Part shown: piece after piece, positions 12,865 to 16,035 of the stretch
Position numbering within the stretch: the stretch's first letter is position 1
How the letters are laid out: every line of letters begins with the position of its first letter
Assembly (NCBI GenBank): GCA_036308285.1
Contig: JAXJVZ010000292.1
Coordinates: forward strand, 1 to 21,071
DNA from: Agathobacter sp.
Lineage (GTDB): Bacteria > Bacillota > Clostridia > Lachnospirales > Lachnospiraceae
Length of the DNA: 21,071 nucleotides
Reading direction: 5' to 3'
The notes under the pieces: generated by a model
The model's input: the letters and a program-made list of their open reading frames with translations, nothing else
The model's database searches: none
Told to the model about the DNA's origin: nothing
Made by a program: the position numbers and the translations under genes

Positions 12865-14331
12865 ATGAATTTTAGAAGAATGGTTATGCTGTACAGTGAC
12901 TCCTATAAGCAGTGCCACCCCAAGATGTATCCTGATAATCAGGAGTATCTGGTTTCTTACTTGACTCCTCGAAAGGCTATGAATGAGAACTTCCCCAAGA
13001 TGGTTGTTTATGGTGTTCAGCCTTTCATTTTTGATATGATGGATGCCTTTGATGGTTTCTTTGCCACTCCTCTGGAATGGGCAATGTATGATTATGATAA
13101 GTACATTGGCACCCATCTAGGTCTGGATAATGTAGCTCGTGAGCGTATTGTTGAATTACATGAGCTGGGTTATCTGCCTCTGGAAATCCGCGCTCTGCCC
13201 GAAGGCTCTGTTGTCAATATGGGTATTCCCATTGTCGAGATGCGTAATACTCATCCTCGTTTCGCATGGCTGGTTCAGTGGGTTGAGTGCCTGCTCCAGA
13301 CTGAAGTGTGGCCCATGTGTGCTTACGCAACTGTGGGTTGGGAATATCATAAGGTCGCTGAGAAGTACTACAATATGTCTGCGCCCGGCGCAGACCCCTT
13401 CATGGCAATGGCTGACTTCGGTTTCCGTGGTATGAGCTGTATGGAAGACGCAACTCGTTGCTCTGCTTCTTGGCTGCTGTCTTTTAATAAGACCTCTACT
13501 ATTCCTGCTCTGCCCTATCTGGATGATTATTACAATGCCGATTGCGCCAAGAATAAGATTGGTATCGGCGCTGTTTCCACCGAGCATTCTGTTATGGCAG
13601 CTAACTTCGCAATTGATGGCGATGAAATCTCCTTTGTTAAGCGTATGCTGACTGAGATTTATCCTAACACCAGCTTCTCTATGGTATCTGATACCTATGA
13701 CTACTGGAATATGGTGGACAACATTATCCCCGCTTGTAAGGAAGAAATCCTGGCTCATAATGGCAAGCTGCTGATTCGTCCTGACTCTGGCGACATGGTT
13801 TCTATTACCATCGGCACCATCCAGAAGCTGTGGGATGAGTTTGGCGGCACTGTGAATGAAGCAGGTTATAAGGTGCTGGACCCTCATATTGGTCTGATTT
13901 ATGGCGATGGTTGTACTCTGAATAAGGTCACTGAGATTTATGAAACTCTGGCTCAGCTTGGCTTTGCTGCCACCAATGTGGTTTTCGGTGTTGGTGCTTT
14001 CTGCTTCCACGCCCTGTTCTCTCCCGACAATAAGTTCACTGTGTTGACTCGCGATACTTGGGGTATGGCAATGAAGGCAACTTACGGTGTGTTTGGCGGC
14101 AAGGAAGTTCCTATCTTCAAGGATCCCAAGACTGATAATGGTTTGAAGAAGTCTCAGAAGGGTTGCTGCCGTGTATGGTATAACGCGCAGGAAGATATTT
14201 ATACCTGCACTGATGGTTATAGCGAATGGGTTGAGGATGATAATACCCAGCTGATTTCTGTTTATAAAGATGGCGAATCTATTAATGAGCAGGAGTTCCT
14301 TAATATCCGCGCTCGTCTGTATGGAGGTTAA
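12865..14331 (+). CDS. nadV: nicotinamide phosphoribosyltransferase family enzyme (NAMPT/NadV-like; could alternatively be a Namat-type nicotinamide ADP-ribose transferase of the same fold)
   Basis: Many conserved NAMPT blocks are present: SDSYK, LPLEIRALPEGSVV, ADFGFRGMS, MVSDTYDYWN, LLIRPDSGD, GLIYGDGCT, VFGVGA and FKDPKTDNGLKKSQKG. These are close to the human NAMPT counterparts TDSYK, LPIEIKAVPEGFVI, HDFGYRGVS, VVSDSYDIYN, LIIRPDSGN, VIQGDGV and FKDPVADPNKRSKKG. Confidence 0.8.
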   Translation: MNFRRMVMLYSDSYKQCHPKMYPDNQEYLVSYLTPRKAMNENFPKMVVYGVQPFIFDMMDAFDGFFATPLEWAMYDYDKYIGTHLGLDNVARERIVELHELGYLPLEIRALPEGSVVNMGIPIVEMRNTHPRFAWLVQWVECLLQTEVWPMCAYATVGWEYHKVAEKYYNMSAPGADPFMAMADFGFRGMSCMEDATRCSASWLLSFNKTSTIPALPYLDDYYNADCAKNKIGIGAVSTEHSVMAANFAIDGDEISFVKRMLTEIYPNTSFSMVSDTYDYWNMVDNIIPACKEEILAHNGKLLIRPDSGDMVSITIGTIQKLWDEFGGTVNEAGYKVLDPHIGLIYGDGCTLNKVTEIYETLAQLGFAATNVVFGVGAFCFHALFSPDNKFTVLTRDTWGMAMKATYGVFGGKEVPIFKDPKTDNGLKKSQKGCCRVWYNAQEDIYTCTDGYSEWVEDDNTQLISVYKDGESINEQEFLNIRARLYGG

Positions 14332-14332
14332 T

Positions 14333-14785
14333 ATGGTAACTTTTCATAATGGAAATATTCTTGATTCTGGGGCAGCAGTAATTTGCCACCAGGTCAATTG
14401 CCAGGGCAAAATGAATTCTGGTGTAGCAAAAGCTATCCGTGAGAAATGGCCCGAAGTATATACTAGGTATCGAACTAAATATGAATGTGAAGTGGATTTG
14501 CTCGGTCAAATTCAGCCTGTAATTATAAATGCAGATCAAGCTGTAATTAATATGTTTGCGCAATATAATTATGGATATGATAACCGCAGATATACTTCTT
14601 ATGACGCCTTCTGGTCTTGCCTTGGTGAAATTAAAAAGTATATCAATCCAGAAAAGACTATCGCTTTCCCCGCTCGCATTGGATGTGTGCGTGGTGGCGC
14701 AAACTGGAGTGTTATTCTGAAAATGATTGAAGAAGTTCTCGGTGAGGACTATAATGTTGAGATTTGGGATTTTGATAAGGGGTAA
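14333..14785 (+). CDS. macro-domain protein (ADP-ribose binding / ADP-ribosyl-hydrolase fold)
   Basis: A GGAGG RBS precedes the start. The segment GNILDSGAAVICHQVNCQGKMNSGVAKAI resembles the macro consensus GDIT..DAIVNAAN..L.GGGGV..AI. The segment IAFPARIGCVRGG resembles the C-terminal IAFPaIstGvyG motif. Confidence 0.55.
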   Translation: MVTFHNGNILDSGAAVICHQVNCQGKMNSGVAKAIREKWPEVYTRYRTKYECEVDLLGQIQPVIINADQAVINMFAQYNYGYDNRRYTSYDAFWSCLGEIKKYINPEKTIAFPARIGCVRGGANWSVILKMIEEVLGEDYNVEIWDFDKG

Positions 14786-14790
14786 ATAAA

Positions 14791-15594
14791 ATGAGAAATG
14801 GTTTTGATGCAGAATTTGAGATCATGAATATCATTGATGATATTCGTCATTACTTTGCTACCAATGGTAGTAAGGATACTAAGGCCATTATTGGCATCTC
14901 CGGTGGTAAGGATTCTACCATTGCTGCTGCCCTACTGGTGCGCGCACTGGGTAATGATAGGGTCATTGGCGTTCTAATGCCTGATGGCGATCAGAAAGAT
15001 ATCGCAGATGCTCGTGCAGTATGTGAATATCTGCATATTAAGAATTATACTATTAATATCAAATATACTACTGCATCCTTTATCGAGGATATTGAGAGAA
15101 ATTCTGATCTTCTACCCAATGGAGCAGTTCATACTAATATGCCTGCGCGTGTGCGTATGACTACTCTGTATAATATCGCTGCAATGGTTGGCGGTAGAGT
15201 CATCAATACTGGCAATGCTTCCGAAGCTTATGTTGGTTATACGACTAAGTATGGAGACCTTGCTGGCGACTACGCAGTTCTGCGAGATTATTATGTCACT
15301 GAAGTATATAAGATTGGTGATGCACTGAATCTGCCCGAACATCTGGTCCATAAGGATCCCTCTGATGGTATGAGCGGTAAAACTGATGCAGATAATATGG
15401 GCTTCTCCTATGAAGTTCTGGATGATTATCTGATTAATAATAACGTACCTAGTGCAGATATTCTGAAGAATATTCTGGATAGACACGCAAGAAATAGACA
15501 CAAGGAAGCTATTCGTCTGCCGCACCCCGAATGCCGCAGCCGCACTGTTCGCCAGAAGTATGCAAATGACGAATATTGCCCCTTTAGTTTTTAA
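14791..15594 (+). CDS. nadE: NAD+ synthetase (NH3-dependent NadE family, PP-loop ATP pyrophosphatase)
   Basis: A GISGGKDSTIAAAL PP-loop (SGGxDS) is present. Blocks VIGVLMP, NMPARVRM..LY, NTGNASE and VGYTTKYGD match NadE blocks (GLSGGIDS, NIKARMRM, GTGNKSE, GY.TKYGDG). The size of 267 aa is typical of single-domain NadE. Confidence 0.75.
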   Translation: MRNGFDAEFEIMNIIDDIRHYFATNGSKDTKAIIGISGGKDSTIAAALLVRALGNDRVIGVLMPDGDQKDIADARAVCEYLHIKNYTINIKYTTASFIEDIERNSDLLPNGAVHTNMPARVRMTTLYNIAAMVGGRVINTGNASEAYVGYTTKYGDLAGDYAVLRDYYVTEVYKIGDALNLPEHLVHKDPSDGMSGKTDADNMGFSYEVLDDYLINNNVPSADILKNILDRHARNRHKEAIRLPHPECRSRTVRQKYANDEYCPFSF

Positions 15595-15603
15595 GGAGAT
15601 AAT

Positions 15604-16035
15604 ATGATTGATTGTTTTGACGGACACTGGGCGTTTCTGTCAAACTTCTACTGGAATGAAATTGAGTTTGAGGGTATTACATATCCTACAAATGAACATT
15701 TCTTCCAGGCTATGAAAACTCTTGATATAGATGAACGCCGTGCTATTGCTAATTGCCTCACTCCCGGTCAGGCTAAGCGTATGGGGCGACGAGTAGCCTT
15801 GCGACCTGACTGGGAAGATGTTAAGGAAGCTGTTATGCTTGAAGGTTTGTGTTTGAAGTTTGCTGATGAACAGCTTGCTGATTGGCTTCTGGAAACTGGC
15901 GATGAAGAGTTGGTTGAGGGAAATTTTTGGAAGGATACTTTTTGGGGCGTGTGTGATGGTGTCGGCGAAAACAAACTCGGTAAGCTTCTTATGCGAGTGC
16001 GCGACATGATTAAGGAAGAAAGAGGGCTGGCTTAA
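15604..16035 (+). CDS. NADAR (YbiA-like, DUF1768) domain protein, a predicted ADP-ribose/NAD-derivative N-glycosidase/hydrolase
   Basis: The sequence FDGHWAFLSNFYWNEIEFEGITYPTNEHFFQAMK…PGQAKRMGRRV…WEDVKEAVMLEGLCLKFADEQLADWLLETGDEELVE…FWGVCDGVGENKLGKLLMRVR matches the NADAR consensus (F.G.Y..LSNF…EH.FQA.K…AK..GR…W…M….KF.Q…L…LL.TG…L.E…WG.G..G.N.LG..LM.vR). Confidence 0.7.
   Translation: MIDCFDGHWAFLSNFYWNEIEFEGITYPTNEHFFQAMKTLDIDERRAIANCLTPGQAKRMGRRVALRPDWEDVKEAVMLEGLCLKFADEQLADWLLETGDEELVEGNFWKDTFWGVCDGVGENKLGKLLMRVRDMIKEERGLA

Follow-up and report, generated by a model that had tools for sequence, protein, structure and literature searches.

A phage operon of Namat-clade transferase, macro, NadE and NADAR genes as a candidate core of a nicotinate-type branch of NARP1

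Depletion of nicotinamide adenine dinucleotide (NAD+) is among the commonest bacterial antiviral strategies. Since 2024, three phage pathways that reconstitute NAD+ and two accessory enzymes have been described. NARP1 consists of Adps and Namat, and NARP2 of Nampt and Nmnat (Osterman et al. 2024, bioRxiv 10.1101/2024.02.11.579819), while NARP3 pairs a PnuC-like transporter with a NadR-like bifunctional enzyme (PMC13464706). NARP1-AP adds the macro phosphatase Adpp to Adps and Namat, and this Poa1p-like enzyme turns the ADP-ribose-1''-phosphate made by aRES into ADP-ribose (ADPR) (Osterman et al. 2026, bioRxiv 10.64898/2026.01.28.702374); RyDEP is a further NARP1 accessory (PMC13232231). NADAR genes have been reported next to NadV and NadM in phages, and soluble ADPR derivatives were proposed as the targets of viral NADARs (Iyer et al. 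2022, PMC9503650). Here we describe a four-gene operon at positions 12865-16035 of a phage-derived stretch of 21,071 nucleotides (contig JAXJVZ010000292.1 of the Agathobacter sp. assembly GCA_036308285.1; the whole stretch is called the window below). Set against the systems above, the four genes on balance probably form the conserved core of an enlarged NARP1-type operon that would reconstitute NAD+ through the nicotinate branch.

The ORF listing gives four adjoining plus-strand open reading frames (ORFs) at 12865-14331, 14270/14333-14785, 14791-15594 and 15604-16035, and the stop codon is TAA in all four. For the second gene the most likely start is not 14270 but ATG 14333, which follows the stop codon of the NAMPT-fold gene by one base and lies behind a GGAGG. 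The four genes are a single transcription unit, a real operon, with the following parts and boundaries:

12664-12693, plus strand: terminator-like hairpin with a 13-bp stem and T tract that ends the upstream cell-wall-hydrolase gene; upstream boundary
12800-12828, plus strand: promoter-like site TTGATT-17-TGATATAAT (also written TTGATT-17-TG.TATAAT)
12832-12852, plus strand: 21-nt leader and ribosome-binding-site cassette TATACAAAGTTAAGGAAAGGA, after the promoter-like site
12865-14331, plus strand: Namat-clade NAMPT-fold transferase, 'S-type', 488 aa
14333-14785, plus strand: macro-domain protein of the Poa1p/DarG/TARG1-like class, 150 aa
14791-15594, plus strand: single-domain NH3-dependent NAD synthetase (NadE) without a glutaminase domain, 267 aa
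15604-16035, plus strand: NADAR domain protein of the YbiA subfamily, 143 aa
16017-16047, plus strand: terminator-like hairpin with a 12-bp stem and T tract that overlaps the NADAR stop codon; downstream boundary

One operon behind a promoter and terminated at both ends is what the first-pass annotation had proposed, and the promoter-like site, the contiguous plus-strand genes and the two hairpins with T tracts bear this out. The four families that it assigned are likewise upheld by profile, PHROG, NCBIfam and structure-entry matches, with one refinement for the first gene.

Judged by its matches, the NAMPT-fold enzyme is a member of the Namat (NARP1) clade, not of the Nampt clade. It matches PF04095 NAPRTase (5e-27) together with NAMPT_N, phrog_448 (3e-151) and, in an end-to-end alignment, NCBIfam NF006629 (429 bits, cutoff 405). 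Among PDB entries it scores highest against 9w5x/9w5w (353 bits) and 9ke8 (304 bits), the residue numbering of 9w5x agreeing with that of SPbetaL1 Namat as reported in PMC12774641. Human and rodent NAMPT score ~172 bits against these 353, and Xanthomonas Nampt 149 bits, so that of the earlier NAMPT-like call the fold stands and the placement in the Nampt family gives way to the Namat clade. The name of NF006629, 'nicotinate phosphoribosyltransferase', was considered as evidence for nicotinate and rejected: the match spans the whole NAMPT-fold protein, and we take the model to be of the NadV/NAMPT type. PncB-type NAPRTase models were missed (TIGR01513, 22.9 bits against a cutoff of 297; NF009131, 22 against 330).

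In the alignment to the 9w5x sequence, the position of SPbetaL1 Asp215 (human NAMPT Asp219) is taken by Ser211, a Gly position (SPbetaL1 G213, human G217) by Lys209 and an Ala position (SPbetaL1 A242, human A244) by Ser238; the other aligned core residues are kept (Asp12, Tyr14, Phe185, Arg188, the His of TEH, the Arg and Asp of RPDSGD, and TRD). Asp215 of SPbetaL1 Namat hydrogen-bonds the nicotinamide amide and its change to Ala lowers activity 8-fold (PMC12774641), the D219S mutant of human NAMPT appears in Table 2 of PMC4919578 (after Khan 2006) as one with switched substrate affinity, and G217R of the human enzyme blocks inhibitor binding. An acid removed and a Lys and a Ser hydroxyl gained are what would be expected of a pocket that binds a carboxylate instead of an amide. 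The window Namat is predicted to join nicotinate either to ADP-ribose pyrophosphate (ADPR-PP), giving nicotinic acid adenine dinucleotide (NaAD), or to phosphoribosyl pyrophosphate (PRPP), giving nicotinic acid mononucleotide (NaMN). The adenine-clamp stretch of the window enzyme reads GAFCFH, a 10-residue insertion and VLTRD, with the aromatic residue at position 3 kept. The insertion (window 13996-14031, residues ~378-389) is found in Ser-type Namats and some Ala-type ones, and the helix that carries it clamps the ADPR-PP adenine in SPbetaL1 Namat.

To place the operon among its relatives, loci were collected from IMG/VR, 80 via the NAMPT-fold protein (57-85% identity) and 52 via SPbetaL1 Namat as contrast, together with GenBank MT835544, Phass-1 and ENA/Logan contigs found via the NadE protein. 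The operon genes are linked in >100 related loci, on contigs of which several come from human faecal or gut samples; the grouping is not due to chance, and the co-conservation across related phages on which the first reading had depended is thereby found. The recurrent order is nicotinamidase (PncA, isochorismatase family), Prs-like, NAMPT-fold, macro or a small protein termed hyp139, sometimes NADAR, and NadE. Linkage was counted in non-redundant loci whose flanks reach at least 4 kb upstream and 3 kb downstream, grouped by the residue at the Asp215 position:

Ser-type loci (n=64): NadE 64/64, Prs-like 63/64, PncA 62/64, macro 47/64, NADAR 29/64
Ala-type loci (n=11): NadE 11/11, Prs-like 11/11, PncA 11/11, macro 6/11, NADAR 2/11
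Asp-type (canonical) loci (n=22): NadE 0/22, Prs-like 22/22, PncA 0/22, macro 1/22, NADAR 3/22

An Adps-like Prs thus stands upstream in 74/75 Ser/Ala-type loci and a nicotinamidase in 73/75, and the sole Ser-type locus without a Prs-like gene is the window. A wider survey of 141 loci divides in the same way, with NadE or PncA in 0 of 39 Asp loci and NadE in 98 of 101 Ser/Ala loci, the other three all being cut by contig ends. The Prs-like partner of the relatives is 37% identical (141 bits) to SPbetaL1 Adps and scores at most 55 bits against any solved Prs; as no solved Adps structure was found among the PDB entries searched, the SPbetaL1 Adps sequence served as the reference. A NMNAT-like gene is detectable in ~15/147 loci, so that most operons are without an adenylyltransferase of their own, as would be expected if NaAD were made directly.

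The substitution seen in the window is general on this side of the family, the nicotinamide-reading Asp being replaced in 75 Ser-type and 14 Ala-type relatives as well. The surrounding motif changes as a block, from the canonical FxGTDTIPA to F[ND]KTSTIPA in the S-type or FxN[TS]ATVPx in the A-type, and 20 alignment columns (residue at least 90% conserved in canonical Namats and essentially absent from both NadE-linked groups) separate the canonical enzymes from the rest. Several of them are pocket positions, namely D215, G213 and A242 and also columns 185 and 187, beside the stacking Phe189, and 239, beside A242. The association is kept over divergence as deep as within the canonical Namats, A-type pairs going down to 35% identity. 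In two relatives (L145 and L147) the macro, NadE and NADAR proteins are 67-92% identical to those of the window, yet the Namat is Ala-type and just 41-42% identical, a pattern that indicates exchange of the Namat allele by recombination with the NadE linkage kept.

The slot between Namat and NadE holds macro, a protein of 128-139 aa (hyp139), both, or NADAR, and looks like a variable accessory position (for example L002 5576-5995, L019 11454-11837 and L141 9101-9505); hyp139 matches phrog_1238 and, weakly, the nucleoside deoxyribosyltransferase-like family PF15891. A larger island is present in the 85% Namat relative L003 (6319-15746), which carries PncA, Adps, YqeY-like, SIR2-family (PF02146, 153 bits), Namat, macro, NadE, NADAR, AAA_28 and NadM-like adenylyltransferase (TIGR01527, 50 bits) genes. 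The NadM-like gene also occurs in the close relatives L141 and L145, and the AAA_28 kinase in L141; the SIR2, YqeY, AAA_28 and NadM-like genes of L003 have no counterpart in the window, nor do the AAA_28 and NadM-like genes of L141.

The remaining three products fit a role in rebuilding NAD+ and recycling ADP-ribose. NadE matches PF02540 NAD_synthase (1e-54, 185 bits) and TIGR00552 (176.9 bits, cutoff 63.65), its first solved relative being the Pyrococcus enzyme (138 bits) and its second the Francisella nicotinamide mononucleotide (NMN) synthetase 3fiu (116 bits); it is predicted to amidate NaAD to NAD+. The macro protein matches phrog_335 ('phosphatase', 5e-39) and the NCBIfam DarG model NF048014 (53 bits against a cutoff of 250, with the macro part alone covered by this 150-aa protein), its Pfam Macro match of 18.4 bits lies under the gathering score of 22, and 1143 phage records carry macro homologues annotated as macro or Appr-1-p phosphatase. 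Among its PDB macro matches BT1257, SCO6735 and DarG stand above Poa1p, whose structures match weakly (E=0.003). It is 35% identical to the macro protein of an Adps-macro-Namat operon in Vibrio phage RYC, which was used for comparison in place of the characterised Adpp of Vibrio phage Gary, as the latter was not among the listed matches. We predict an Adpp-like ADP-ribose-1''-phosphate phosphatase that would yield ADP-ribose. The NADAR protein matches PF08719 (7e-28; 98 bits, cutoff 35) and TIGR02464 (84 bits, cutoff 74), with E. coli YbiA (2b3w, 77 bits) as best structure match. Aligned with the P. nicotianae NADAR 8bau, it has E31, K38 and E105 at the places of the catalytic E43/K50/E125 (the catalytic Glu/Lys/Glu are defined in PMC11543638 and the subfamilies in PMC11125620), and it is predicted to be an N-glycosidase that frees ADP-ribose from N-linked ADP-ribose adducts.

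With PncA and NadE as obligatory partners, the pocket change suggests that the base is nicotinate and the product NaAD (or NaMN), and a switch of the pyridine substrate to nicotinate would explain NadE. The full set of the relatives, PncA - Adps - Namat (S/A-type) - [macro or other small accessory] - [NADAR] - NadE, suggests the following pathway. Immune NADases would cleave NAD+ to ADP-ribose and nicotinamide; PncA, of phage or host, would convert the nicotinamide to nicotinate, and Adps would turn the ADP-ribose into ADPR-PP by pyrophosphorylation. The Namat variant, its pocket minus the amide-reading Asp and, in the S-type, plus a Lys, would then join nicotinate and ADPR-PP to NaAD, which NadE would amidate to NAD+. 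The macro protein would supply ADP-ribose from ADP-ribose-1''-phosphate and NADAR would supply it from N-glycosidic adducts, the two together opening further NAD+ breakdown products to recycling. Both the substrates and the counter-defence role are what we infer from these assignments, and the counter-defence function by NAD+ reconstitution and ADP-ribose salvage suggested at first reading is plausible. More tentatively, and with somewhat less than even confidence, the operons could constitute a fourth route, 'deamido-NARP1', in which a remodelled Namat (Gly to Lys/Asn, Asp to Ser/Ala, Ala to Ser) makes NaAD from nicotinate and ADPR-PP alongside a phage nicotinamidase and NadE. Its variable slot (macro, the Nuc_deoxyribosyltransferase-like hyp139, NADAR) would gather enzymes that turn non-canonical NAD+ breakdown or signalling products into ADP-ribose, with NADAR as a new member acting on N-glycosidic ADPR adducts.

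A large branch of phage contigs joins NARP1 obligatorily to nicotinamidase and NadE, with the substrate-deciding residue changed. If the proposal is true, the formation of NaAD from ADPR-PP would be a new enzymatic reaction, and the arms race would acquire a new logic in which NAD+ is rebuilt from the product of host nicotinamide deamidation; deamido-NARP1 would suit hosts that quickly deamidate nicotinamide.

Several observations weigh against this interpretation. The canonical adenine clamp is altered by the 10-aa insertion, Ser391 is replaced by Ala and the Arg40 position is occupied by Met, so that use of ADPR-PP by the NadE-linked clade is not assured. The substrate assignment draws on covariation and on a single human NAMPT mutant as precedent, and as the NadE-linked Namats form one clade in a neighbour-joining tree, that covariation may stem from a single origin and not from many independent events. 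For the macro protein, DarG and SCO6735-type de-ADP-ribosylases are no more distant than Poa1p, and with the Francisella NMN synthetase second-best to NadE, amidation of NaMN is possible. Finally, with Adps and PncA absent, the full pathway cannot run from the four window genes alone, and without Adps the ADP-ribose produced by macro and NADAR has no obvious consumer.

This last point concerns the window more than the family. No homologue of Prs/Adps, PncA or NMNAT was detectable in the 21 kb window (tblastn for Prs/Adps, at E<=1e-3, and for PncA). Concealment of Prs or PncA by stop-codon recoding was considered and rejected, as tblastn reads through stops and still found none. The missing half can be traced to the junction of two genes upstream of the operon:

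10596-11408, plus strand: RlaP-like nucleotidyltransferase, abutting the next gene with an ATGA overlap
11405-11968, plus strand: 187-aa ORF

In three relatives whose NadE is 83-85% identical (L141, L142 and L145), the homologues of these two genes lie ~3.7-4.3 kb apart, and the intervening segment carries PncA and Adps along with Metallophos and T7 Gp5.9-like genes, and YqeY in L141 and L142 alone. In a fourth (L147, NadE 75% identical) the first gene is likewise followed by the PncA-Adps block, with no homologue of 11405-11968 detected. Comparison of these sequences identifies the absence of PncA-Adps as an indel at the 10596-11408/11405-11968 junction. The lack of NMNAT and of a Prs-like enzyme, which the first-pass annotation had taken as defining, holds within the window; the layout without a Prs-like enzyme is therefore an indel of this genome and not a family architecture. 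The nucleotidyltransferase at 10596-11408 was also considered as a stand-in for NMNAT and rejected, being of the Pol-beta/RlaP type and present in full-operon relatives as well.

For the window itself, two versions of the nicotinate pathway can be envisaged. Because Namat enzymes retain activity with PRPP, host-made nicotinate and host PRPP could give NaMN, host NadD would convert this to NaAD, and the phage NadE would complete NAD+; alternatively, Adps may be encoded outside the window. The operon genes are intact and under constraint, with ratios of nonsynonymous to synonymous substitution rates (dN/dS) against the relative L141 of 0.10 for Namat, 0.08 for NadE, 0.16 for NADAR and 0.32 for macro, and they look maintained, without visible decay. 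NadE proteins 88-90% identical to that of the window occur on short contigs, so the lineage has been sampled repeatedly. The window is a natural pncA-adps deletion to set against its near relatives.

The strongest alternative, although we consider it unlikely, is that the operon boosts the Preiss-Handler pathway via PRPP and never uses ADPR-PP. The NAMPT-fold enzyme would be a nicotinate phosphoribosyltransferase making NaMN, host NadD or the NadM-like enzyme of relatives would adenylylate it, and NadE would finish; in a variant, NadE would be an NMN synthetase working before NadM, as in Francisella. The Prs-like gene of relatives would on this view just provide PRPP, and the purpose could be a general supply of NAD+ for replication instead of counter-defence. 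That Namat and NadE are intact and constrained in a window without Adps fits this proposal, as do the formation of NMN from PRPP by Namat enzymes in vitro (PMC12774641), the NadM-like gene of the L003, L141 and L145 islands with the AAA_28 kinase of L003 and L141, and the rank of 3fiu among the solved NadE matches, NadM having been linked with NadE of the NMN-synthetase type (PMC3376133). The proposal is harder to reconcile with the clades of the transferase (Namat, not Nampt) and of the Prs-like protein that usually accompanies it (Adps, not Prs), and with a NMNAT-like gene detectable in ~10% of loci. The enrichment of macro (47/64) and NADAR (29/64) in S-type loci over Asp-type ones (1/22 and 3/22) is also better accommodated by ADP-ribose recycling.

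A second alternative, which we regard as rather improbable, separates the two accessory proteins from NAD+ synthesis: macro and NADAR would act primarily against ADP-ribosylation, removing the ADP-ribose that host ADP-ribosyltransferases, DarT-type or other, attach to phage DNA, RNA or protein, and would be co-transcribed with Namat and NadE as both answer NAD+-consuming immunity. Every tested NADAR subfamily hydrolyses ADP-ribosylated guanine (PMC11125620, PMC11543638), and phage NADARs counter DarTG1 (PMC11257639); the window protein, however, is of the YbiA subfamily, and E. coli YbiA and the tested phage NADAR gave no protection from DarT1 in vivo (PMC11125620). Likewise, the macro protein matches the macro part of the DarG model and the DarG and SCO6735 structures, but its 53 bits compare with a model cutoff of 250. 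The position of NADAR varies and it occurs in under half of the related operons, as for an add-on, whereas a single slot within the NAD+ operon is taken by macro, hyp139 or NADAR in alternation, and the NARP1 accessories described so far, Adpp and RyDEP, all have soluble ADPR derivatives as substrates and supply the pathway. That the four genes are a decaying remnant, functionless passengers left by the PncA-Adps deletion in which lesions have not yet accumulated, is very improbable: the window is indeed the sole one of 75 comparable loci without Adps and the deletion junction is precise, but none of the four ORFs is broken, catalytic residues are kept and the unit has a promoter of its own and a terminator, the dN/dS of 0.08-0.32 against a full-operon relative and the repeated sampling of the lineage speak against it, and nothing in the sequence supports it.

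The reading as a nicotinate-type NARP1 operon also bears on how the locus differs from what has been described. NARP1 shares with it the Namat-clade enzyme, the preceding Adps-like Prs of nearly all related loci and the phage-borne, operonic setting. It is set apart from NARP1 by the pocket and adenine-clamp changes of the window Namat, by NadE and PncA as obligatory partners in the NadE-linked clade and absent from canonical NARP1 loci, and, in the window, by the lack of Adps beside Namat. As in NARP1-AP, a small macro-domain protein, putatively Poa1p-like, adjoins Namat, and the operon order of its Vibrio phage RYC homologue is that of NARP1-AP; unlike NARP1-AP, the order here is Namat-macro and not Adps-macro-Namat, NadE, NADAR and (in relatives) PncA are additional, and macro is present in 47/64 S-type loci against the 15% reported for NARP1 operons. 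NARP2 (Vibrio phage KVP40) and NARP3 have in common with the operon the restoration of NAD+ by phage salvage enzymes, and the relatives L003 and L141 add a NadM-like adenylyltransferase and an AAA_28 kinase; the window enzyme is, however, not of the Nampt clade, the window gave no cytidylyltransferase-like or NMNAT match, and neither PnuC nor NadR was found among its 21 ORFs in a Pfam scan.

The bacterial Preiss-Handler pathway (PncA, PncB, NadD, NadE) and the Francisella NMN-synthetase route offer a different kind of likeness, in that the nicotinamidase of the relatives and NadE imply deamidated intermediates; here, though, the transferase has the NAMPT/Namat fold and not that of PncB, NadD is missing, and the Prs-like partner is Adps-like. 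Stand-alone phage NADARs beside NAD+ salvage genes have precedents in the anti-DarTG1 enzymes (PMC11257639) and in NADAR-NadV neighbourhoods (PMC9503650), from which the window protein differs in belonging to the YbiA subfamily (Glu in the last strand), not to the gp30.3 (His) or DarT1-linked (Asp) types, and in sitting within a Namat-NadE operon. The literature searched gave no description of NadE, nicotinamidase, nicotinate or NaAD tied to Namat or NARP, and the nicotinate-type branch of NARP1 is apparently undescribed. The undescribed architecture claimed at first reading is accordingly narrowed: macro beside Namat has its precedent in NARP1-AP, and it is the nicotinate switch that appears new.

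The transcription signals of the operon recur downstream. The 21-nt leader is found again, exactly, at 16078-16098 (chance expectation, 0 copies), and the whole of 12800-12852, promoter-like site and leader together, is repeated identically at 16046-16098. This second cassette, promoter-like by sequence, would restart transcription after the operon, and the repeated unit looks like a modular transcription-unit signal of the phage. The first hairpin precedes its cassette by ~106 nt (12693 to 12800), and the second overlaps its cassette by 2 nt (16047 versus 16046); a weaker cassette copy lies at 7426-7446. Rfam and tRNA scans of the window were empty, giving no riboswitch or tRNA link, and a megablast of the island against isolated phages returned no near-identical DNA.

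Elsewhere in the window, two paralogous genes, at 6371-7117 (minus strand) and 8122-9057 (plus strand), are open only with TAG as a sense codon, containing 4 and 10 in-frame TAGs, respectively, and 0 in-frame TGA; the single TAA in the second is its stop. Several of these TAGs align with Gln in a relative (L007, 7950-8846). Both paralogues combine CxxC repeats with a C-terminal EFDGxQHY endonuclease-like module and lie in a stretch of low GC content (0.26-0.33). Genetic code 15 is evidently in use in this phage, as in the Phass-1 clade; TAG recoding is seen in at least the window and Phass-1, and the four NAD+ genes contain no TAG.

An 837-aa protein encoded at 3833-6346 (plus strand) matches the major-vault-protein shoulder (PF11978, 64.5 bits) and a vault repeat (PF17795), with no PHROG or NCBIfam match. 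It is conserved at 57-70% identity in L003, L005 and L007, directly upstream of PncA-Adps. A second Band_7-like gene (19639-21071) runs off the end of the window.

Neighbours of RNA-repair type are found at 9057-9362, 10596-11408, 16300-17016, 18481-18996 and 19164-19598, comprising a cREC_REC cyclic-phosphate receiver domain, the RlaP-like nucleotidyltransferase, two metallophosphoesterases and an AAA_33 kinase, and in MT835544 an RNA ligase adjoins Adps. NAD+-dependent RNA repair yields ADP-ribose-1''-phosphate, and such repair could be a further source of substrate for the macro protein.

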